DNA of 14,225 nucleotides, taken from a virus (lineage: Duplodnaviria; Heunggongvirae; Uroviricota; Caudoviricetes). Position 1 is the first letter of the stretch; each line of letters opens with the position of its first letter. The notes under the pieces were generated by a model, which had not been told where the DNA came from, did no database searches, and saw nothing but the letters and a program-made list of their open reading frames with translations. Positions 2,590 through 10,040 of this stretch are shown piece by piece. The stretch is from the IMG/VR virus record IMGVR_UViG_2778261499_000007. One strand, 5' to 3'. Both the position numbers and the translations under genes were made by a program.

Positions 2590-2925
2590 TTATTGTGCAA
2601 CACGCAAATCGCCATTGCTGGCAGCAATAACAGCGGCTAAGCCGTCTTTATCCACGTAGGCCGGATTGATATAACAGCCTTTGTTGGCAACAACGATAAA
2701 AGCATCACCAACCTCAGCACGTTCTACAACCAGCAGCGGAGTTTTATCGGTGTGCGTTTCTTTAACGAAGGTCTCAACCTCGCCAGCCTCAGTCACCACA
2801 ACAACAGTGCCAGCCGGAATCTCAGCTTTAACTTTGTTTTTAATTTCAACGTCGCGAATACTAAATTGCTCATCTGCGGCGTATGAAATGATGTGTCCGC
2901 GTGTGCGGATAGTCATATCTCTCAT
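2590..2925 (-). CDS. Head decoration / cement protein, lambda gpD-like (111 aa)
   Basis: AGGTGA lies 4 nt upstream of the ATG. About 110 aa with IPAGTVVVV...G..v.....a.VGDAFIVVANKGCY, typical of decoration proteins. It sits immediately upstream of the capsid gene, as in lambda D-E. Confidence 0.6.
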   Translation of the reverse strand: MRDMTIRTRGHIISYAADEQFSIRDVEIKNKVKAEIPAGTVVVVTEAGEVETFVKETHTDKTPLLVVERAEVGDAFIVVANKGCYINPAYVDKDGLAAVIAASNGDLRVAQ

Positions 2926-3410
2926 TTGATCACCTGCGATTTAAATTAACTCCCCTCAAAGAGTTCCGGTATAACCTCTCAAACCGCGACAGGCTCGGGC
3001 CGAAAAGTTATGCCGGAAATCTAAAGGGGGATTGATATAAGGAGAGGGAGATAGCCCCGCACCGTAGCCAAGCGGGGGCTATTCCACATGGGGAAACCGA
3101 CAACAGTCGGATGATAGTTCACAGTATGGGTTACGGTTACTAGAGAGCACTATCACGAAAGGCACTCCCCCGAATCAGTTCAGGCTGCGGTCACATCAGC
3201 GGGGAAATACCTTTCGGGATAGCTACCCACACAGAAAACCCGCAAAAGAAAACTGTGTGGATAACTAGCCCAATAGGAGAATTAATCGACCACTCAACGA
3301 TGATCAGGGTAGTGTTATTTATAGGGCGGCACCGCTACCTGGTCGCCTTTACTTTGGAGGAAAATATGGCAAATCAAGATCTTCTCAAATGATATTGATT
3401 CCATACTATA
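2926..3410 (-). other. About 480-nt ORF-poor, hairpin-dense leader between the SOS promoter and the decoration gene (candidate cos/packaging region or regulatory RNA)
   Basis: Stems read directly: ATAGCCCCGC/GCGGGGCTAT (3051-3081); CCGAC/GTCGG; CCACACAG/CTGTGTGG (3228-3260); TCCGG.ATAAC/GTTATACCGGA (2966-3019, 11 bp with 1 mismatch); and a nested long hairpin at about 3140-3226. There is a GC-rich quasi-symmetric block, GGGCGGCACCGCTACCTGGTCGCC, at 3324-3347. Confidence 0.4.
3256..3264 (-). promoter_or_regulatory. Perfect DnaA box (TTATCCACA on the minus strand)
   Basis: The plus strand reads tgtggataa, 9/9. It lies within the 3' arm of the CCACACAG/CTGTGTGG hairpin and its 3' flank. Confidence 0.35.
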
Positions 3411-3428
3411 CTGTATATTATATCAGTA
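3409..3428. promoter_or_regulatory. LexA operator (SOS box)
   Basis: TACTGTATATTATATCAGTA equals TACTG-N10-CAGTA with an all-A/T spacer. This is the canonical E. coli-type CTG-N10-CAG palindrome. It overlaps the -10 element of the promoter below. Confidence 0.8.
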
Positions 3429-3445
3429 TTTACTCACATTGTCAA
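3417..3445 (-). promoter_or_regulatory. Consensus sigma70 promoter firing leftward toward the decoration/capsid operon
   Basis: The minus strand reads TTGACA (3445-3440), a 17-nt spacer atgtgagtaaatactga, then TATAAT (3422-3417). Both hexamers and the spacing are perfect. Confidence 0.8.
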
Positions 3446-3775
3446 CACCTTGATTATATAAATTCTAATAATTAGCGTAGTAACGGTATTTTCAGACCTC
3501 TATCAATCCCATCAATACGTCACCCCCACCCTTTAGATGCATACATCCGACCTACTTTGTAGGCTTGGCGTACTGCCAAGGTCGCAGCTATGCGACTCCT
3601 ATCTATCACCACTTTATAAAGCTTGATAGATATCTTTTGATCAATATCAATGTTTTCCGGGTATTTACCCGGCTATAGTTCGAATCAAGGAAGGGGAGCA
3701 TTGATAGAGACACCCAAAGGGGTGACTGAAAGTCACCTGGCATAGCCAGTGAAAGCACCCAACCGAACAAACAAA

Positions 3776-3790
3776 TCAACTTCTCGCAAA
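3776..3790 (+). promoter_or_regulatory. Conserved leader motif copy 1 (TCAACTTCTCGCAAA), 26 nt before an ATG
   Basis: Identical 15-mer to 4367-4381, at the same distance from the start codon. Confidence 0.6.
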
Positions 3791-3801
3791 AGGTGATAGT
3801 T

Positions 3802-3924
3802 ATGGGTATCAAGAACAGTGCCAGCGCATGGCAAAAGGCCAGGTTTCATCACCCACACATTGTTAAGGCAATTGAGGTGGTTGGAGTTTTAGCCCTGATG
3901 TTAGCTCTGTGTGTGGAGGTGTGA
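3802..3924 (+). CDS. Small protein, 40 aa, with a hydrophobic C-terminal segment
   Basis: AGGTGA SD upstream. Translation: MGIKNSASAWQKARFHHPHIVKAIEVVGVLALMLALCVEV. It is below the ORF-track size cut-off and was translated by hand. Confidence 0.4.
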   Translation: MGIKNSASAWQKARFHHPHIVKAIEVVGVLALMLALCVEV

Positions 3925-3925
3925 G

Positions 3926-4006
3926 ATGGGCAAAGGAGGCAAAGCATTTTTAATAGGTCTGGCTATCCTGGATGTTCTACTAATCATGATTAAGCGGAGT
4001 TTATGA
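3926..4006 (+). CDS. Small membrane peptide, 26 aa
   Basis: GGAGG lies 6 nt upstream. The start is 1 nt after the previous stop. Translation: MGKGGKAFLIGLAILDVLLIMIKRSL. Confidence 0.4.
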   Translation: MGKGGKAFLIGLAILDVLLIMIKRSL

Positions 4007-4025
4007 ACAGCATTGAGAGGAGTTT

Positions 4026-4286
4026 ATGACGGGGGCTAAAGATATCAGGAGACTGAGGGAAGAGCTGATAGCTGAAATTAAAGCTAAGGCAAAGCAAATG
4101 GAGATAGCCGCACAAATGGATGTAGCGGAACAGATGTACAAGATGGTTGAGGAGGGAACGCCACGACAGGTTATCGCTAAAACCTTCGGTGTGGGGATCG
4201 CCACCGTGCACAGAAGGCTGAAAGCCTATGCCGACTACCACAATATCGAGAGAAAGGAGGATGGGAGATTTAAGAAGAATAAATAG
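4026..4286 (+). CDS. Stand-alone recombinase-type HTH protein (86 aa; coiled helix plus a Hin/resolvase-like HTH, no catalytic domain)
   Basis: GTPRQVIAKTFGVGIATVHRRL aligns with Hin GHPRQQLAIIFGIGVSTLYRYF (10/22 identical, from memory). The N-terminal 40 aa is a charged helix. No serine-recombinase catalytic domain is present anywhere in the element. Confidence 0.55.
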   Translation: MTGAKDIRRLREELIAEIKAKAKQMEIAAQMDVAEQMYKMVEEGTPRQVIAKTFGVGIATVHRRLKAYADYHNIERKEDGRFKKNK

Positions 4287-4292
4287 TAGGAA

Positions 4293-4336
4293 CAGGCCCG
4301 AAGGGCTTAGCTTTAGCTAAGGTCCTATCAGGACTC
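4293..4336 (+). repeat. Inverted repeat IR-R (44 nt, partner of 1437-1480)
   Basis: Sequence: caggcccgaagggcttagctttagctaaggtcctatcaggactc. It starts 7 nt after the HTH gene stop. Confidence 0.9.
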
Positions 4337-4366
4337 CCACACAGTCCAACAGGTTATTAACTAAAT

Positions 4367-4381
4367 TCAACTTCTCGCAAA
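4367..4381 (+). promoter_or_regulatory. Conserved leader motif copy 2 (TCAACTTCTCGCAAA), 26 nt before an ATG
   Basis: See 3776-3790. Confidence 0.6.
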
Positions 4382-4392
4382 GGGGTACCACT

Positions 4393-5103
4393 ATGTTTAA
4401 AGGTCTTGTTGTTACGCTATTGGCTTGCATTGTATTTGGTCCATGGGTGTTAGTAATTGCTTTACCTATATTGCTGATCATGAGCTTAGGGAATGATATT
4501 AAAAAGCTGCATGCACAATATAAGGAGCATCCTGGAGCAGTCATAACAAGTCTGGTTATAGTCGCGGGGCTTATTGGCTGGGTCTACTTCTCTCTTCCCA
4601 CAGGAAATACAACTGCAAATGTAGAAGAGGCGAACGCACAGCATGAAGAAGTGGTTAACGTCGCCGACCTTACATGGGAGGACAGGGTAAAAGCATATAA
4701 ATATATTTATGGTGTGCTAGATTGCGATCTCTCTAAAGATATAGGATGCACAGATAAATACCAGATTCACGCCTGGCTGTGGAATCATGCAGAAAAAGGT
4801 GCTTGCAACCAGATTAAAGTGGCGGTTAACAGTGGGGCACCTACTGGGAAAAATAAAGATGTTCTGACGGTATGGTGCAAGGATGTAAAAGGCAATGATC
4901 GTTGGCTACAGATGCGCCACATGGACGGTGTAAGCATAGAAACTACACGAACGGCTCGATGGTATAACGGTGAACTCGTTCACGAAGCATGGCAGAATAA
5001 CGCCTGGATCACTGAGGGAACACTCCTGAATGTTGATATGGAAGCATTGAAGATGCTTAATGAGATGTACGGTGAAGCCGTAGAAACCTCTCCGATGAAA
5101 TAA
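4393..5103 (+). CDS. Membrane protein (236 aa) with N-terminal TM helices and a Cys/Trp-rich extracytoplasmic domain; function unknown
   Basis: Hydrophobic stretches: LVVTLLACIVFGPWVLVIALPILLIM and VITSLVIVAGLIGWVYF. Soluble C-terminal domain. Followed by a strong terminator. Confidence 0.6.
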   Translation: MFKGLVVTLLACIVFGPWVLVIALPILLIMSLGNDIKKLHAQYKEHPGAVITSLVIVAGLIGWVYFSLPTGNTTANVEEANAQHEEVVNVADLTWEDRVKAYKYIYGVLDCDLSKDIGCTDKYQIHAWLWNHAEKGACNQIKVAVNSGAPTGKNKDVLTVWCKDVKGNDRWLQMRHMDGVSIETTRTARWYNGELVHEAWQNNAWITEGTLLNVDMEALKMLNEMYGEAVETSPMK

Positions 5104-5113
5104 CCACACCTAC

Positions 5114-5140
5114 CAGGGGCCATCACGGCCCCTTTTTATT
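5114..5140 (+). terminator. Rho-independent terminator
   Basis: AGGGGCC-atcac-GGCCCCT followed by TTTTTATTT. Confidence 0.8.
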
Positions 5141-5200
5141 TATCCCCTATTTACACTCCTTTCAGTCCTGATCATCACTCCCTACCCCCTGATCAATTAA

Positions 5201-5251
5201 CCCCTATTTAAGGGGTATTTAATGGGTATTTAATGCCTATTTATTGATTTA
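5201..5251. repeat. Phased 11-bp repeats (SSSTATTTAWK, 4-5 copies)
   Basis: TATTTA starts at 5205, 5216, 5227 and 5238, an exact 11-bp period. There is a degenerate copy at about 5247 and an isolated copy at 5148. Confidence 0.7.
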
Positions 5252-6486
5252 ATCCGTTTTATGCCACAACCGCCCGGTTGACAGAGTAAGAGAGAGGGTG
5301 TAACCCTTTTTCGTAATACTAATAAAATCAATAGCTTAGCTCAATTGGCCTTTTCTCTGTTTTTGTCAAATTTAACATACCCTAAAAAACTGCAAAATCT
5401 GGCTGCAAGATTATCTGCAGCTGGATTTCTTACACCTCAATTTGTGGTATCACCCTGACTAGTTTGTGCATAAAATGAACAGTTTTTAACATTTCCTCTT
5501 CACCTGGTAACCACACAAAAAGCTAAAAACGAGGCACAGATAATCTTAGAGGCCTGTTTTCTTGTTATCACTCTGGAAACGTCGTAGAAGTGATTTTGAT
5601 GAAAGATGACCTACCCTATTACACCCCCATTTTTTGTTATCACAATTGCATCCTGTGCGGTGTATGGCTGTGTGCTGAAAGCGGTCTTGGGTGTGGGTGT
5701 CAGAAATATCCATTAGCGGTATTAATACCCGTCAGATGTTCGTCTGAGGTGCCAGGCAGGCGCTCCCCCACCTCCCTTTTTTCTTCTAACAATTCTCAAA
5801 TATCACACCACTGCCGACCACGTTACTACTCTGTTAATTCTTAAGCTTTGCTGTATGTTGTGCACATTATTTATTCAGGTGCGTGTACGTAAATTCTGGG
5901 CCTCCTTATCATGATTTTTAAATCAGATTTTGTAGTTCGGTTTCTTAGTGTAGATAAGATCTATTATGTTAAATGCAATTTTCCCAACCCTTCAAATCAA
6001 TGACTTACATGTAAGCATGCACTAACACCCCACACAGCACATTAGACGTATAGATGGCTATATCCCACATTTTTGATTGTTTTGTAGTCATTCCCCTGAT
6101 CATTTAACCAGTATAGTTTGTTCTTTGCAGACCACAAAATCGGAATTTACATCTGATTAACATAATCTGTTAGCATGATCACTATTACCCACACAACAAT
6201 AACCCCATGCAAGACTCTTCAGGCAATTTATCGGCGTGTTGGTGTGAACAGTCTTTCATGTTCTTTATGTTTTCATTGTCCTGTGTGAGGGAAGGATGGA
6301 CTGCCCCAGGGGCCACACTTATGATGCCCGGTCAACATAGCTATTGATAAAATCAACGGGTGTTGATCTGCATATTTCCCACACATGAGAGGAAATCAGA
6401 GCAAAGAGAGAGGAGAGAGGTTTGCTAGTCAAAATAGGTCAATTGACGGCTAATACAGAGTAAAAAATCAGATGCAATCACTCCCC

Positions 6487-6673
6487 ACCTGTTGGGATTT
6501 CCCGCACCTGTATAAGAATACAGTCATACTTTCCCGTTATACGGTCATACACATGATGGAATAACCTGTTGGAATTTCCTACAGGTTTAACCATACACAG
6601 GAGCTAACCTGTTGGAATTTCCTACTACTACCTGTCGGTATTTCCCACAGGTACCTGTTGGAATTTCCCACAC
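6487..6673 (+). repeat. Iteron array (5 x 21 bp, ACCTGTTGGAATTTCCCACAS); candidate replication origin
   Basis: Copies start at 6487, 6564, 6607, 6630 and 6653. The last three have a 23-bp period. Each contains an internal ACCTGT...ACAGGT dyad. An AT-rich flank (6674-6708) contains GATCTATTCTCTT on the minus strand (6683-6695), 1 mismatch from the oriC 13-mer GATCTnTTnTTTT. Confidence 0.75.
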
Positions 6674-6797
6674 TAATAGATAAAGAGAATAGATCAATAA
6701 AAAGAACTCCCCCTATAATCCCCCAACAAGGGGGGATGGGGAGGGATCAGAGAGTGGGGAAGGTTTTCTAAGGGAAAAGCTTAACCCACAAATGAAA

Positions 6798-7086
6798 GCC
6801 TAAAGAGCATTAGCGACTCTTTAGGCAATCTGTGTGTGGGGTGACAATGTATTCCATACATGACACGTCACCCAATTGTGTGTGGGGTGCTTACAGCACT
6901 TAAGCCTCTGGCTTAACCCTTCGGGCCTCTGTGTGGGAAGCGTAGTGCGATAGCACGTAGCTTTATAATGTGGAGTCCGGATAAGAGACTTCTGTTTCCA
7001 ATCCGGACCGTTTAAGCGAGGGATTCCGCTCGCCCGTGTATGCACACACGTAATAGGACGCTCAGAAATCGATTTTAAGGCCCAAA
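6798..7086 (+). other. Cluster of GC-rich hairpins (candidate structured ncRNA or single-strand initiation signal)
   Basis: GCCTAAAGAG/CTCTTTAGGC (6798-6826); GGGTGAC..GTCACCC with nested ATGTAT/ATACAT (6839-6873); CCC-TTCG-GGG context (6917-6925); GTCCGGAT/ATCCGGAC (6975-7008); GCGAG/CTCGC (7016-7033); AGGCCC/GGGCCT (7069-7086). TGTGTGTGGGGTG occurs twice (6831, 6877). Confidence 0.35.
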
Positions 7087-7231
7087 ACGGGGCCTACAGC
7101 AACCTAAACCATACTCCATAGTGCAATTGCATTGCCTGATGCTTAAATCGCGTTGTAGGGCATCTCATGAGGTTTGAGTTTAACACCCTCCAAAGTTTTA
7201 ACAAAAAGTGCTCTCCCTCCATTGTGGGCCA

Positions 7232-7261
7232 TTGACAATCTTATTGCATAAATGCTATAAG
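7232..7261 (+). promoter_or_regulatory. Promoter P1 (TTGACA-18-TATAAG)
   Basis: Read directly. Shares the ATTGACAAT motif with P2 and P3. Confidence 0.5.
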
Positions 7262-7360
7262 TGATTCTGGTTTTGACACGGTAGGGGCCATTAATAATGT
7301 TTACCCCTTTGCTGTGGACTTGCTTGCACCTATAGCACACCTAAATGATAATAATTCTCA

Positions 7361-7389
7361 TTGACAATTGGTTGACAATATGATAAGAT
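7361..7389 (+). promoter_or_regulatory. Promoter P2 (TTGACA-17-TAAGAT)
   Basis: Read directly. A second TTGACAAT lies 11 bp downstream, at 7372. Confidence 0.5.
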
Positions 7390-7424
7390 TATAAATAGGG
7401 GGAGAAACAGATCCGGAGGTCAAT

Positions 7425-7574
7425 GTGGAAATTACTGATGCAATAGCGATCATCAACCTGGCTGTACTGTGGTGCGGTGTTGCCTACATAGCCGGAGTAA
7501 CTGCAATCGACAATCTCGAAGAAAAAATGATAGATAAATACAAAAAGATTGTTGACAATTTGACGAATGTCTGA
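7425..7574 (+). CDS. Small single-TM peptide (49 aa, GTG start)
   Basis: GGAGG lies 5 nt upstream of the GTG. Translation: VEITDAIAIINLAVLWCGVAYIAGVTAIDNLEEKMIDKYKKIVDNLTNV. Not in the ORF track; translated by hand. Confidence 0.4.
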   Translation: MEITDAIAIINLAVLWCGVAYIAGVTAIDNLEEKMIDKYKKIVDNLTNV

Positions 7575-7580
7575 TAAAAT
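7552..7580 (+). promoter_or_regulatory. Promoter P3 (TTGACA-17-TAAAAT)
   Basis: Read directly. It lies inside the 3' end of the 49-aa ORF. Confidence 0.55.
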
Positions 7581-7630
7581 ATAAAGCATAGGGTAATTCT
7601 CATCATAGTGAATTTCCTTAAACAAAAATG

Positions 7631-7915: not shown

Positions 7916-7939
7916 TAAATAATCTTGGAGGATCATATT

Positions 7940-8326
7940 ATGGCAAATAACGATGAAAATTTTACTCCCTTTTTTAAACGTTTCATCAAATACACTTTTA
8001 AAAATCCGATTGCAAAAACTGCAACCAATAAAGAAAGATTTCACTTAAATGTGTTGGAGGTAACAATTTATGGTGAAATGGTAAGTTATTCTTTTAAGGA
8101 GGGTGAAGAAATAATTATCTCAGAGCTCTCGACGCAGACATTAGCAGACGATTATGATGTTACAGAGAAAACAGTAAGGTCGGCTATCAAAACATTAGAG
8201 GCTGCAGGTCTGATAAACGTTAAACGAGAACAGGGCAAATCGAATATCTACGAATTGCTAATTACCCCTGATCAGCTTGGCAAGATGTGCGATGAGCAGG
8301 GTATTAGAGAATATTTTATATATTAA
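7940..8326 (+). CDS. Winged-helix DNA-binding protein, short paralog of the Rep-like protein (128 aa)
   Basis: GGAGG lies 8 nt upstream of the ATG at 7940. The track start at 7925 is a TTG. It aligns along its whole length with the N-terminal 130 aa of the next protein (FTP.F..FI.Y.F..P.A....NK...ERF.L...E..IYG.MV...F.....I.ISE...LA.......VSAIK.LE.AGLI......G.SN.Y.LL.TPDQL..MC.E.G). Confidence 0.65.
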   Translation: MANNDENFTPFFKRFIKYTFKNPIAKTATNKERFHLNVLEVTIYGEMVSYSFKEGEEIIISELSTQTLADDYDVTEKTVRSAIKTLEAAGLINVKREQGKSNIYELLITPDQLGKMCDEQGIREYFIY

Positions 8327-8337
8327 TGGGGGGAACT

Positions 8338-9258
8338 ATGGCAGGAAATAAACTGGGGGCACCTTTTACCCCCTCTTTCGATTTCTTTATTCAGTATGAT
8401 TTTGATAAACCAGTAGCAACAACAATTTCTAATAAAAAGACTGGAACAGTTAAAGAGCGCTTCTATTTAACAGACTTTGAAATGTTGATTTATGGAAAAA
8501 TGGTGGGATTTCATTTTAACGGTGAGGGAATTTATATTTCAGAGCAAAAACTGGCAACTCAACTCAGAAAGGATCGCGGGAAAATAGTAAGCGCTATTAA
8601 ATCTCTGGAAAATGCCGGGCTTATTTCTAAAGATAGCCGGAAAGGCATGTCTAATAATTACAAATTGCTGAAAACCCCTGATCAATTGTTGGATATGTGC
8701 ATTGAGAAGGGCGTAAATATTCCAGAAGGCATCTTAGAGACTTTCGGAAAGACTGCCGCTAAAGTAGAACAGCCTCAGGAAGCCCCAAAACAAGCCACAC
8801 AGCAAGCTAAAAAGGCTAAAGTAGTGCAATTGCCTACCCAAGACACTAAAGCGCCTCAAATTAACGCTGTTAGTGACAAGCCACGCCGGGGCCGTCCTGT
8901 GAAAGATGTCACCGATGGAGGCTGGATCGTCCTGGGTGAGAGTGAGGCTAAAGGCATAATGCGATCACTGTGGGAAAGCAAATACAAAGATTTAAACAAA
9001 CGTCGCCCGATCCTTTTGTCAAAGATTCAGGAGGATTTTTACACCGCAGAAGAGGTAAGCCAACATAAAGGGAAAAGAGAGGGTGAAATCTGGAAACCGG
9101 AAGAATACTGGCATTTAACCAGACCTGTGTTTATTTTTGCAAATAAGCTTATTGGGATGGGATTTGAAATATTGTTGGATAAAACCTGCGGAGATTATCC
9201 CGAAATATTGTGGAGAAATGTTAGAAAAAATAAAAAAGGCATTTTAGAGTTTAAATAA
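8338..9258 (+). CDS. Putative replication initiator (306 aa): N-terminal winged helix plus a PRRGRP basic linker plus a C-terminal domain
   Basis: GGGGGG lies 4 nt upstream of the ATG at 8338, and the paralog alignment starts at MAGNK. The wHTH pattern is typical of plasmid/phage initiators. The iterons lie about 1.3 kb upstream. Confidence 0.55.
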   Translation: MAGNKLGAPFTPSFDFFIQYDFDKPVATTISNKKTGTVKERFYLTDFEMLIYGKMVGFHFNGEGIYISEQKLATQLRKDRGKIVSAIKSLENAGLISKDSRKGMSNNYKLLKTPDQLLDMCIEKGVNIPEGILETFGKTAAKVEQPQEAPKQATQQAKKAKVVQLPTQDTKAPQINAVSDKPRRGRPVKDVTDGGWIVLGESEAKGIMRSLWESKYKDLNKRRPILLSKIQEDFYTAEEVSQHKGKREGEIWKPEEYWHLTRPVFIFANKLIGMGFEILLDKTCGDYPEILWRNVRKNKKGILEFK

Positions 9259-9551: not shown

Positions 9552-10040
9552 ATGTTCAAATCTGATCTTTCTGATTCCCAATTTGAAAAACTGGTAGCAC
9601 TGCAGAAATATCTCCCCAGTGATGATCAACCAACACGACAGGCTAAACACTTATTAGTCGAGGGCTTTACCCCTGAATTCGTGGCGGAATATACAGGCGT
9701 TAAACTTGAGAAAGTCCAAAAACTATATAATGAGTCCTGGAATCCACGGTGTCGAGTTCCCCTCAGTGTCTACAACGAAATAGATAGAGATAGAAATGTC
9801 TTCGAAGATCGCCGCCGCAAATCTCTTTTAATGTGGAATTGTGGGATGAATATTGAAGAGATAGCAAAAGAATTAAAAGTAACCTGCTTTCATATCTGGG
9901 GCTTGTTGAGTGAAATCCTACCACGTAAGGAGCTTAATCAACGTTTGCCTAAGCCCGGTAGTCGTGCTTATCGCGAATTTATATTCATCTACCGCCGCCA
10001 TAGCAATAAAGTCCGGAAAGCAATGGCCCAGAAAGCCTAA
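9552..10040 (+). CDS. Protein with two HTH-like motifs (162 aa); function unknown
   Basis: GGAGA lies 7 nt upstream. HTH-like stretches: FTPEFVAEYTGVKLEKVQKLY and MNIEEIAKELKVTCFHIWGLL. Basic C-terminal tail. Confidence 0.6.
   Translation: MFKSDLSDSQFEKLVALQKYLPSDDQPTRQAKHLLVEGFTPEFVAEYTGVKLEKVQKLYNESWNPRCRVPLSVYNEIDRDRNVFEDRRRKSLLMWNCGMNIEEIAKELKVTCFHIWGLLSEILPRKELNQRLPKPGSRAYREFIFIYRRHSNKVRKAMAQKA

Follow-up and report, generated by a model that had tools for sequence, protein, structure and literature searches.

The DNA invertases Hin, Pin, Gin and Cin bind DNA through a helix-turn-helix (HTH) domain of the HTH_7 type (PDB 1HCR, 1IJW), in which an extended arm ahead of helix 1 reportedly enters the minor groove. 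Mobile elements also produce HTH-only proteins derived from the DNA-binding domain of their enzyme, as exemplified by IS1 InsA, which binds the IS1 ends and represses, and the Mor/C family of Mu and Fis are small dimeric regulators that combine a dimerisation helix with a C-terminal HTH and use dyad-symmetric sites near promoters. Here we describe an 86-aa HTH protein encoded at 4026..4286 on the + strand (stop codon included; translation MTGAKDIRR...GRFKKNK) of the window, that is, the whole 14,225-nucleotide stretch of DNA that was analysed, which is a complete circular, phage-like Escherichia coli plasmid of ~14.1 kb.

The best sequence match of this protein is the invertase DNA-binding domain (36–41% identity over 33–38 aligned residues), with which it shares G-x-PRQ before helix 2 and F-G-[VI]-G-[IV]-[AS]-T at the turn and recognition helix. 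TGATAG sites near its gene differ by one base from TGATAA, the outer hexamer of the Hin half-site. Unlike Hin and Pin, the protein stands alone, without catalytic domain, alphaE helix or Gly-Arg-Pro arm (GRPR in Hin, GRRP in PinE); a 40-residue helix unrelated in sequence comes before its HTH and a beta-hairpin wing after it, and four of six recognition-helix positions differ from Hin (ATVHRR versus STLYRY). Like IS1 InsA, it is small and consists essentially of one HTH of the recombinase/transposase class, but its plasmid encodes no cognate enzyme. With Mor/C and Fis it has in common the plan of an N-terminal helix and a C-terminal HTH, in a class of about 90–130 aa, with dimerisation putative here. 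The protein is most likely a small regulator of transcription and, as such, nothing out of the ordinary.

Sequence and fold of the helix-turn-helix protein

HTH_7 (PF02796) is the best Pfam family for the protein (E = 3.4e-6, residues 30–65), and its score of 27.5 bits exceeds the gathering score of 23.8, which supports membership. The margin over HTH_23 is small (23.6 bits, just under the cut-off of 24.6), and HTH_23 outscores HTH_7 in P0010 and P0011, the only two informative relatives found in an exhaustive representative search, which lie on contigs of 0.8–1.2 kb. Among 177,635 PDB sequences, the Hin DNA-binding domain (1HCR and seven more entries) is the only significant match (E = 3.5e-4 with the single sequence and 4.5e-5 with the family profile). 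BLASTP against E. coli PinE places residues 36–67 on PinE 150–181 with 38% identity, GTPRQ being identical, and hhalign, run against an alignment of Pin-like invertases, aligns residues 35–67 only (89% probability, E = 2e-6). These matches delimit an invertase-type HTH at codons 34–67 (4125..4226, + strand), which by sequence comparison is closest to those of Hin/Pin-type DNA invertases, more than by chance, with homology over ~33 residues only. The initial annotation had aligned a C-terminal segment, GTPRQVIAKTFGVGIATVHRRL, with the Hin HTH. The alignment stands, 10 of 22 positions being identical to the Hin string, but the segment (residues 44–65) is central to C-terminal rather than at the extreme C-terminus.

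Other HTH classes score lower. Weak, sub-threshold matches to HTH_Tnp_IS1 and to IS1 and IS630 transposase models fall under HTH_7 and under their own curated cut-offs, and LuxR/GerE, DeoR/SorC and sigma-70 region 4 were rejected as candidates, their profiles lying far under cut-offs (Sigma70_r4_2, 14.7 versus 25.7 bits) or, for GerE, giving no match. A profile comparison of resolvase-type with transposase-type HTHs, as suggested for this gene at the outset, thus puts the resolvase-type family first, with no better hit in a different class. An unrelated HTH, also considered initially, is not the best sequence-level description, because the best profile matches are recombinase-type; the term is apt for the fold, which is a generic HTH.

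In an AlphaFold2 model (pLDDT 84), the protein is predicted to form one helix at residues 3–42, further helices at 47–54 and 58–72 and a beta-hairpin at 75–82, that is, a 40-residue N-terminal helix, an HTH and a short wing. The long amphipathic helix (codons 3–42; 4032..4151, + strand) is modelled with pLDDT 79–92, agrees with the charged initial helix noted earlier in this 86-aa product, has a pN/pS of 0.157 and is probably a dimerisation element. Residues 47–54 form helix 2, and the recognition helix (58–72) includes ATVHRR, which is unchanged even in relatives with 44% identity. The wing and basic tail (codons 73–86; 4242..4283, + strand) are delimited by the predicted secondary structure and by invariant columns, N73, I74, R76 and G80 being invariant throughout the family. 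Fis (6p0s_B) is among the weak Foldseek matches, and neither Mor (PF08765) nor the Fis-type HTH_8 gives a Pfam match.

The ORF is present in all eight sister plasmids, where RefSeq labels the product ‘helix-turn-helix domain-containing protein’, and in L011, one further copy of the same plasmid and the sole return of a metagenome scan, with 94–99% amino acid identity. Across 10 copies, pN/pS is 0.095 overall and 0.03 for residues 43–86, and 32 of 45 variable sites are third codon positions, a pattern that marks the ORF as real, functional and under strong purifying selection. No relatives, close or distant, were found in GenBank phages, and none in IMG/VR and GTDB representative genomes. P0010 and P0011 bear a different C-terminal domain; this extension matches no Pfam or PHROG family, and nothing corresponding to it was found in the plasmids or cargo alleles.

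The initial annotation described the protein as lacking the serine-recombinase core, and this is borne out. The catalytic domain PF00239 has no match in the protein or in any ORF of the window, the protein contains no serine-recombinase catalytic domain with a nucleophilic serine, and a Pin-family HMM at maximum sensitivity, applied to six frames of the window and eight sister plasmids, matches only at HMM 148–181, which is the HTH. hhalign leaves the N-terminal helix unaligned to any invertase column, including alphaE (...AEMERELIVERT...), and alphaE homology hinted at by a PHROG invertase alignment from residue 15 was not upheld. The set used for hhalign, 18 Pin-like invertases, is shallow (84–98% identity), so a very remote relationship to alphaE could still exist; the long helix nevertheless appears not to be homologous to it. 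The residues aligned with the minor-groove Gly-Arg-Pro/Arg arm (24–33, QMEIAAQMDV) lie within the predicted long helix and include no Gly, Arg or Pro. The protein appears to be neither a recombinase nor a piece of one. A decaying recombinase remnant, proposed initially, would account for the HTH_7-type similarity and for a PHROG ‘DNA invertase’ match confined to the C-terminal part of the profile. It is refuted as far as sequence analysis allows, and is scarcely credible, given the strong purifying selection on the gene, the lack of any catalytic or alphaE match by HMM in any frame of nine plasmids or by hhalign, the conserved peptide genes that fill the upstream space, and an 86-aa module that is intact at 44% identity on unrelated contigs.

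Host plasmid and operon

Genes for capsid, Dit and tape-measure proteins are present on the plasmid, but those for terminase, portal and recombinase are lacking, and besides the 86-aa protein it encodes at least four other HTH-like proteins. Of 5,426 complete E. coli genomes, 7 contain a member of the family, and searches of the GenBank phage, IMG/VR and GTDB representative collections returned none. GenBank phages contain no relatives of the window, close or distant, and the capsid protein as a query in IMG/VR returned no diverged elements. PADLOC gave no defence-system match of note, and neither the Rfam nor the tRNA scan of the window produced a match. The literature searched holds no description of the plasmid family or of orphan HTH_7 regulators, and published work on small HK97 viruses does not cover the family.

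Two 42-nt arms, initially read as an inverted repeat flanking the gene, correspond to sigma-70 promoters facing outwards. The left arm (3406..3447, − strand) is the divergent capsid-operon promoter (TTGACA-17-TATAAT, 12/12, with an upstream TG), and the right arm (7550..7591, + strand) is the promoter of the rep/tail operon (TTGACA-17-TAAAAT, 11/12). TGATA(T/A) is present at the extended −10 of the two strong promoters and of one further promoter-like site. Iterons of 21 nt occupy 6485–6671, and an inverted iteron half-copy, TCCAACAGGTTATT, lies directly after the HTH stop codon (4345–4358); its complementarity to the iteron core (6560–6573) is 100%.

The HTH gene comes third in a small operon that encodes two hydrophobic micro-peptides, the HTH protein and a swappable membrane-protein cargo. 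FNR binds the consensus TTGAT-N4-ATCAA, and at class II promoters the centre of the site lies ~41.5 bp upstream of the transcription start. A perfect FNR-type box (3637..3650) occurs exactly once per plasmid (9/9), with half-sites kept and an N4 that varies (CAAT or CCTG), and its centre is 30.5 bp before a conserved TATAGT (3674–3679). Box and TATAGT together may constitute an activated promoter of class II for the HTH operon. A simple consensus scan gave no sigma-70 promoter ahead of the operon, and the promoter assignment is therefore itself putative.

Just before the first gene lies a conserved leader, TCAACTTCTCGCAAA (3776..3790, + strand), which is repeated at 4367–4381 before the cargo gene. 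Its core, CTCTCGCAAAGGTGAT, also precedes the homologues of 44% identity in L003 and L004; a scan of IMG/VR with the 15-mer gave 71 scattered single matches, about the chance number as estimated, and was dropped. The first gene, pep1 (3802..3924, + strand), encodes 40 aa with a hydrophobic C-terminus (...ALMLALCVEV), and a counterpart ending in ...MLAMCVEL lies upstream of the distant HTH homologue in L004. The second, pep2 (3926..4006, + strand), encodes a 26-aa hydrophobic peptide. Its stop overlaps the HTH start (ATGA) in L005 and L006, which implies translational coupling. L009 carries a frameshifted pep2 and L003 lacks it, which implies that the HTH gene is independent of pep2. A 23-nt tandem duplication (3989..4029, + strand; absent in L005, L006 and L009) covers the end of pep2 and the HTH ribosome-binding site, GAGAGGAGTTTATG, and creates an 8-codon mini-ORF (4003–4029) whose stop overlaps the HTH ATG. 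The cargo slot (4393..5103, + strand), last in the unit, holds a 236-aa membrane protein in the window. Other plasmids have a 173-aa or a 195-aa protein in its place, and the leader in front is the same in every case.

The layout of this operon raises the question of whether the HTH protein could instead be a regulator or antidote of the micro-peptides in a toxin–antitoxin-like, lysis or exclusion cassette, with DNA binding serving only autoregulation. The pep1–pep2–HTH order kept in L004, the ATGA overlap and the purifying selection on both peptides (pN/pS 0.20 for pep1 and 0.30 for pep2) are consistent with such a cassette, whereas L003 retains the HTH gene and leader with both peptide genes lost, the L009 frameshift disrupts pep2, and there is no PADLOC or toxin-family match of note. 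We regard this as improbable; it would also not fully replace regulation through the TGATAG sites, because in both cases the protein would autoregulate the same operon.

TGATAG sites and the regulation proposed

TGATAG occurs 16 times in the window (7.5 ± 2.7 expected), with nine of these in 3112–4325, and TGATAGA occurs four times within 3499–3708 (~210 bp); 0 of 1,000 shuffles reached even three copies in 250 bp. Six TGATAG sites are positionally conserved across nine plasmids. Judged by recurrence and position, the clustering and conservation of the TTGATAGA sites, in the control region that precedes the HTH operon, are real. Single sites lie at 3499..3506 (− strand), ~90 bp upstream of the predicted start of the capsid-operon promoter and present in 9/9 plasmids, and at 3701..3708 (+ strand), downstream of the putative HTH-operon promoter, where TGATAG is kept in 9/9 plasmids despite a 48-bp indel.

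Between them lies a candidate operator (3600..3632), a perfect 9-bp inverted repeat TATCTATCA-N15-TGATAGATA with the core CTATCA-N15-TGATAG, of which each plasmid has one. All nine plasmids retain CTATCA and eight of them TGATAG, the right half being TGACAG in L006. The 15-nt spacer is only ~53% identical between two plasmid groups, the left flank is non-homologous, and L007 has a 14-nt spacer, which makes the site 26 bp there and 27 bp in most plasmids. Sequence around the right half is conserved more generally, which leaves the left half as the only distinct island of conservation.

Sites of the Din family span 26 bp, with two 12-bp half-sites, inner AAACC/GGTTT and a 2-bp crossover core; hixL is TTCTTGAAAACC AA GGTTTTTGATAA, and the Hin half-site ends in TGATAA (PMC3241671, Table 3). 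The palindrome here, CTATCA + CCACTTTATAAAGCT + TGATAG, contains no AAACC/GGTTT, its spacer varies between plasmids, and, unlike hix, it has no recombination core. A symmetric hix form built from the right half of hixL, which we take to correspond to hixC, has its outer hexamers 14 bp apart, compared with N15 in the plasmid. The likeness to hix is one of outer hexamers and similar spacing only.

This likeness, and an HTH closest to those of Hin and Pin, might suggest an accessory subunit that recruits or blocks a Pin/Gin/Cin-type invertase of the host or a helper at hix-like sites or at the 42-nt inverted repeats (3447–7550), the initial annotation having envisaged a helper-encoded invertase at the flanking repeats. 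Most of the evidence goes the other way. The arms are promoters; all eight sister plasmids align collinearly with the window without any inverted segment, and each non-multimeric record shows a single place; an invertible-segment system, with two inverted sites and both orientations, was not found in these plasmids, which each have one palindrome and no recombinase; and the dix core AAACC-AA-GGTTT is absent from a site whose length is mostly not 26 bp and whose spacer is not conserved. Collinearity already largely refutes such a role, which we consider very improbable.

The reading that we prefer, with a probability of roughly 0.45, is that the 86-aa protein regulates as a dimer through the TGATAG sites. 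Dimerisation would be through its long N-terminal helix, and each HTH would read a TGATAG(A) half-site much as the Hin HTH reads TGATAA. In the 350-bp region between its own and the divergent capsid operon, the dimer would sit on CTATCA-N15-TGATAG and on the single sites to either side, and could thereby autoregulate its own operon, which seemingly depends on the adjacent FNR-type activator site, and possibly modulate the capsid promoter. Repression or autoregulation is the default given the size and position of the protein, and the sign of regulation is putative. Among the initial proposals, a repressor acting on the TTGATAGA sites fares best, since the cluster is real, positionally conserved and upstream of the protein's own operon; we infer the link between protein and sites, which other HTH-like proteins of the plasmid could also bind. 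Palindrome half-sites that persist where spacer and left flank have diverged, and the invariance of ATVHRR, also speak for this reading. Some TGATAGA sites could belong to the host FNR/CRP family, because three begin with TTGAT, an FNR half-site. Further points against are the recognition-helix differences from Hin, the missing minor-groove arm, the blurred conservation at the right half of the palindrome and the negative sigma-70 scan ahead of the operon.

In a rather unlikely alternative, the protein is a regulator with another target, namely the 21-nt iterons, the two strong promoters or a helper phage, and TGATAGA belongs to another factor, either a host FNR/CRP-type protein or another plasmid HTH protein. 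The iteron half-copy beside the gene, the TGATA(T/A) motifs at the extended −10 positions and the several other HTH proteins would fit this, and PLE CapR is a satellite regulator that acts on helper DNA. Iterons are normally bound by Rep-type winged-HTH proteins, however, which the plasmid encodes, no helper phage is known for it, and the similarity of TGATAG to the Hin half-site, together with sites adjoining the protein's own operon, favours a regulator acting on TGATAG.

A packaging role is also conceivable, since a plasmid with capsid and tail genes but without terminase or portal needs some packaging signal. The TGATAGA cluster beside the head operon would then be a pac/cos-type region, and the protein a small-terminase-like specificity factor that recruits a helper's large terminase. 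Small terminases typically have an oligomerisation core and an N-terminal HTH, whereas this protein has 86 aa and a C-terminal HTH, with neither feature, and its model shows helix, HTH and wing with no further domain. Its Pfam, PHROG and NCBIfam matches include no TerS family, P0010 and P0011 have a different C-terminal domain, and the sites straddle a promoter region. We think it improbable that packaging is its function.

Significance of the protein and its plasmid

By itself, the 86-aa protein adds one more to the small, standalone HTH regulators, and its value is as a way into its host element. That plasmid is unusual and unstudied, and is the more interesting object, as the family unites plasmid replication with a partial, very divergent set of phage head and tail genes. 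A far-reaching extension of regulation through TGATAG, which we consider unlikely, is that the protein is the master switch of an undescribed family of plasmid-borne phage satellites. Such satellites would be circular E. coli plasmids of 13–14 kb with their own capsid, Dit, tape-measure and tail-completion genes and without terminase, portal, integrase or lysis genes. An invertase HTH joined to a new dimerisation helix would act on hix-like TGATAG dyads in a central control region, setting the level of its own operon, which would be FNR-dependent and induced anaerobically, and that of the divergent capsid operon, and the plasmid would stay quiescent until a helper arrives, perhaps a distant rV5-like myovirus. 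If capsid control through TGATAG is true, the protein would be a handle for switching the element on experimentally, and would plainly illustrate how the DNA-binding domain of an invertase can be turned into a transcription factor without losing its preference for hix-like half-sites.

An 86-residue protein with an invertase-type helix-turn-helix

The gene at 4026-4286 (+) encodes a standalone DNA-binding protein under constraint, in which an invertase-type helix-turn-helix (HTH) is joined to a novel N-terminal helix. ORF calling and translation bore out the 86-residue frame proposed in the initial annotation, with GGAG as its ribosome-binding site, 7 nt 5' of the ATG. The likeness to Hin claimed there also holds: residues 44-65 (GTPRQVIAKTFGVGIATVHRRL) are the same as the quoted Hin segment at 10 of 22 positions. 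Pfam HTH_7 is the top family (27.5 bits against a gathering score of 23.8; E = 3.4e-6), and the Hin DNA-binding domain is the sole significant match among all PDB sequences, with E = 3.5e-4 for the single sequence and 4.5e-5 for the family profile. The profile search of the PDB, even when extended to E <= 10, turned up no further resolvase and no transposase or sigma factor. Residues 36-67 share 38% identity with E. coli PinE, including an identical GTPRQ, and profile-profile comparison of the HTH family with 18 Pin-like invertases gave 89% probability (E = 2e-6). At the level of sequence, the resemblance to invertases is statistically real. As HTH_7, the Hin DNA-binding domain, PinE and the Pin-like profile are all recombinase-type, the best matches do not fall in another HTH class devoid of recombinase signal, an outcome that would have counted against the initial annotation. 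The invertase-type signal is narrow, as HTH_23 trails HTH_7 by just 4 bits and both distant homologues (P0010 and P0011) favour HTH_23 in Pfam. In the AlphaFold2 model (pLDDT 84), residues 3-42 form a single unbroken helix, the end of which doubles as HTH helix 1, followed by helices at 47-54 and 58-72, a beta-hairpin at 75-82 and a basic tail. Invertases, in contrast, carry a Gly-Arg-Pro arm ahead of the HTH, and the HTH protein has no such arm.

That this invertase-type HTH is what is left of a decayed recombinase, as had been suggested, is extremely improbable given the constraint on the gene and the extent of the homology. The 10 gene copies compared, from the window, one metagenomic contig and 8 complete plasmids, vary at 45 nucleotide sites, and third codon positions account for 32 of these. 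The pN/pS ratio, 0.095 for the whole gene, drops to 0.03 in residues 43-86, and it exceeds 1 in both alternative frames. Only residues 35-67 align with Pin-like invertases in hhalign, leaving the N-terminal helix wholly unaligned, and an invertase HMM run at maximum sensitivity against six frames of nine plasmids matched only at HMM positions 148-181. No ORF of the window matched catalytic families of recombinase, integrase or transposase. These comparisons indicate that the gene is functional rather than a remnant, and that its invertase homology is confined to the HTH.

Very few proteins belong to this family. Among 5.8 billion clustered proteins, a search recovered 9 clusters, each of them from E. 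coli and at least 86% identical, and HMMER, run exhaustively against 1.84 billion representatives, gave only 29 matches at E <= 1e-3. The informative ones among these are just P0010 (233 aa) and P0011 (247 aa), in which the entire 86-aa module is ~44% identical to the HTH protein, the recognition helix ATVHRR is invariant, and an extra C-terminal domain of ~150 residues matches no known family. Those of the other matches that were examined are multi-HTH repeat proteins and lack recombinase domains.

A four-gene operon with a swappable cargo slot

The HTH gene stands third in a compact run of cistrons, after pep1 and pep2 and before a membrane or secreted 'cargo' gene. Both pep1 (3802-3924; 40 aa; pN/pS 0.20) and pep2 (3926-4006; 26 aa; pN/pS 0.30) encode hydrophobic micro-peptides that are RefSeq-unannotated and, by these ratios, under purifying selection. 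The stop codon of pep2 and the start codon of HTH overlap in an ATGA in two sister plasmids (loci L005 and L006), and in the window a 23-nt tandem duplication adds a mini-ORF that restores the stop-start overlap; translational coupling of pep2 and HTH is predicted in some plasmids. Counterparts of both peptides also precede the distant homologue at L004, in the order peptide, peptide, HTH. The HTH protein might serve this cassette specifically, as regulator of the micro-peptides or as their antidote, which we consider unlikely: the peptides are lost at L003, the locus of the other distant homologue, and pep2 is broken at L009, so the HTH protein is independent of them.

The cargo gene (4393-5103), directly after the HTH gene, is a swappable slot with three allele classes: 236 aa (window and L002), 173 aa (L001, L006, L008 and L010) and 195 aa with a signal peptide (L005, L007 and L009). 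Two of the three classes share <= 26% identity over 66 residues, every allele has a transmembrane or signal sequence at its N-terminus, and no class matched any family. All three follow the same non-coding leader, TCAACTTCTCGCAAA(A/G)GG, also written (C)TCTCGCAAAGGTGAT, which occurs at 3776-3790 and 4367-4381, with a start codon ~10 nt further on in both places. Upstream of the 44%-identical homologues (L003, 1-55; L004, 20-60) the leader's core, CTCTCGCAAAGGTGAT, is near-identical, making the leader more conserved than the proteins. The leader may mark a cassette junction, or act as a specialised element in translation initiation or regulation; an IMG/VR scan with the leader 15-mer gave matches at chance level only.

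TGATAG sites, promoters and a proposed regulatory role

A significant, conserved TGATAG(A) cluster with a dyad adjoins the HTH gene's own operon. The window holds 16 copies of TGATAG (7.5 +/- 2.7 expected), 9 of them inside 3112-4325, and 6 of TGATAGA, 4 of them in 3499-3708; a density of >= 3 TGATAGA per 250 bp was reached in 0/1000 Markov shuffles. Six TGATAG sites keep their position in all or nearly all nine plasmids. Two sites make up a perfect 9-bp inverted repeat at 3600-3632, TATCTATCA-N15-TGATAGATA, whose half-sites are kept while the spacer (14 nt in L007) is only ~53% identical between plasmid groups and the left flank is non-homologous.

Directly downstream lies a perfect FNR-type box, TTGAT-N4-ATCAA (TTGATCAATATCAA; 3637-3650), present exactly once per plasmid (9/9) with constant half-sites and a variable N4 (CAAT or CCTG). 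A conserved TATAGT (3674-3679) follows 30.5 bp beyond the centre of the box, a geometry that fits a putative class II activated promoter of the HTH operon and suggests anaerobic induction of pep1-pep2-HTH-cargo. A simple consensus scan found no sigma-70 promoter ahead of this operon. On the putative class II promoter, the palindrome centre would lie near -70, with single sites near +16 and further upstream.

We propose, with a probability of roughly 0.45, that the HTH protein dimerises, binds the TGATAG(A) sites and thereby regulates its own operon, perhaps together with the divergent capsid operon. Against this, other HTH proteins of the plasmid could bind the sites instead, and FNR half-sites lie within three of them; there is a modest chance that the HTH protein acts on a different DNA target.

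In the outer hexamers and their spacing, the palindrome is similar to a hix site, since the Hin half-site ends in TGATAA and the outer hexamers are 14 bp apart in a symmetric hix site constructed from the hixL right half (PMC3241671 Table 3). It lacks the conserved inner crossover core of hix-type sites, AAACC-AA-GGTTT, and is therefore not a recombination site. The 'flanking IRs' of the initial annotation, 42-nt arms at 3406-3447 and 7550-7591 that are 79% complementary, proved to be two near-consensus sigma-70 promoters pointing outward, one leftwards into the capsid operon and the other rightwards into the rep/tail operon. The window and all 8 sister plasmids are collinear and thus give no sign of an invertible segment; the element has neither a recombinase nor an inversion. 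A role for the HTH protein as accessory to an external invertase is very improbable. Between the consensus promoter of the capsid operon (3445-3417) and its first gene lies a ~485-nt leader on the minus strand (2925-3410) that is ~95% conserved. Its folding z-scores range from -2.6 to -3.7 across 2925-3274, and it includes a GC-rich hairpin (3050-3085) as well as an inverted TGATAG...CTATCA pair (3112 and 3150). This leader may be a structured regulatory 5'-UTR.

An E. coli plasmid family with phage-type genes

The window ends overlap directly by 77 nt, and it is therefore a complete circular molecule of ~14.1 kb. Its relatives in E. coli are non-mobilisable circular plasmids measuring 13.2-13.9 kb. 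They occur in 7 of 5,426 complete E. coli genomes, whose sources (human, bovine, chicken and pig) span several continents. They encode a major capsid protein (phrog_29), Dit-like baseplate, tape-measure and tail-completion-like proteins, and Rep-type winged-HTH proteins; family searches found no terminase, portal, integrase or lysis genes. A TerS-like packaging role for the HTH protein, on plasmids with capsid and tail genes and no terminase found, seems improbable. The capsid and tape-measure proteins share only ~25% identity with their counterparts in rV5-like large myoviruses, the GenBank phage collection held no related DNA, and no description of the family was found in the literature searched. 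The plasmid looks like an undescribed plasmid-borne phage satellite or a defective phage-plasmid. In the RefSeq record NZ_CP043822.1 (39,610 bp; hits H6 and H10) it occurs in three tandem places (3 x ~13.2 kb), either a multimer or a concatemeric assembly; a multimer-resolution recombinase is absent from the plasmid.

Several further features were observed. Two adjacent rep-like winged-HTH genes (7925-8326 and 8326-9258) have paralogous N-terminal domains, and their region (8000-9200) is among the family's most variable, with allele lengths differing between sister plasmids. Upstream, a variable region holds five 21-nt iterons (6485-6671; TAACCTGTTGGAATTTCC...), and an inverted 14-nt copy of the iteron core (4345-4358) sits directly 3' of the HTH stop, ~35 nt before the cargo start. 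A 162-aa protein (9552-10040) with two weak HTH-like segments, a further candidate DNA-binding regulator, lies in the plasmid's most conserved block (9600-10000; 98-99% identity). Segments of 48-70 bp (4291-4340, ~3534-3600 and ~3706-3753) are present in some plasmids and missing from others; several contain a hairpin-like GGCCCGAAGGGCTTAGC...GCTAAGG, and related copies occur elsewhere in the plasmid (6911-6928) and, in L009, at a different position, in an insert near the capsid leader. Such segments may represent small hairpin elements that are mobile or recombinogenic. The 1.2 kb at 5200-6400 holds only ORFs of <= 84 aa, is RefSeq-unannotated, and is 93-98% identical across the 8 sister plasmids, equal to the conservation of the structural genes; Rfam matched nothing in it, and neither strand gave an RNA-folding signal (z about 0).

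Standalone HTH_7/HTH_23-type proteins are common, and this one is already annotated generically in RefSeq. The host plasmid, with its ORF-free 1.2-kb block and structured capsid-operon leader, is a more remarkable object than the HTH protein that it encodes.
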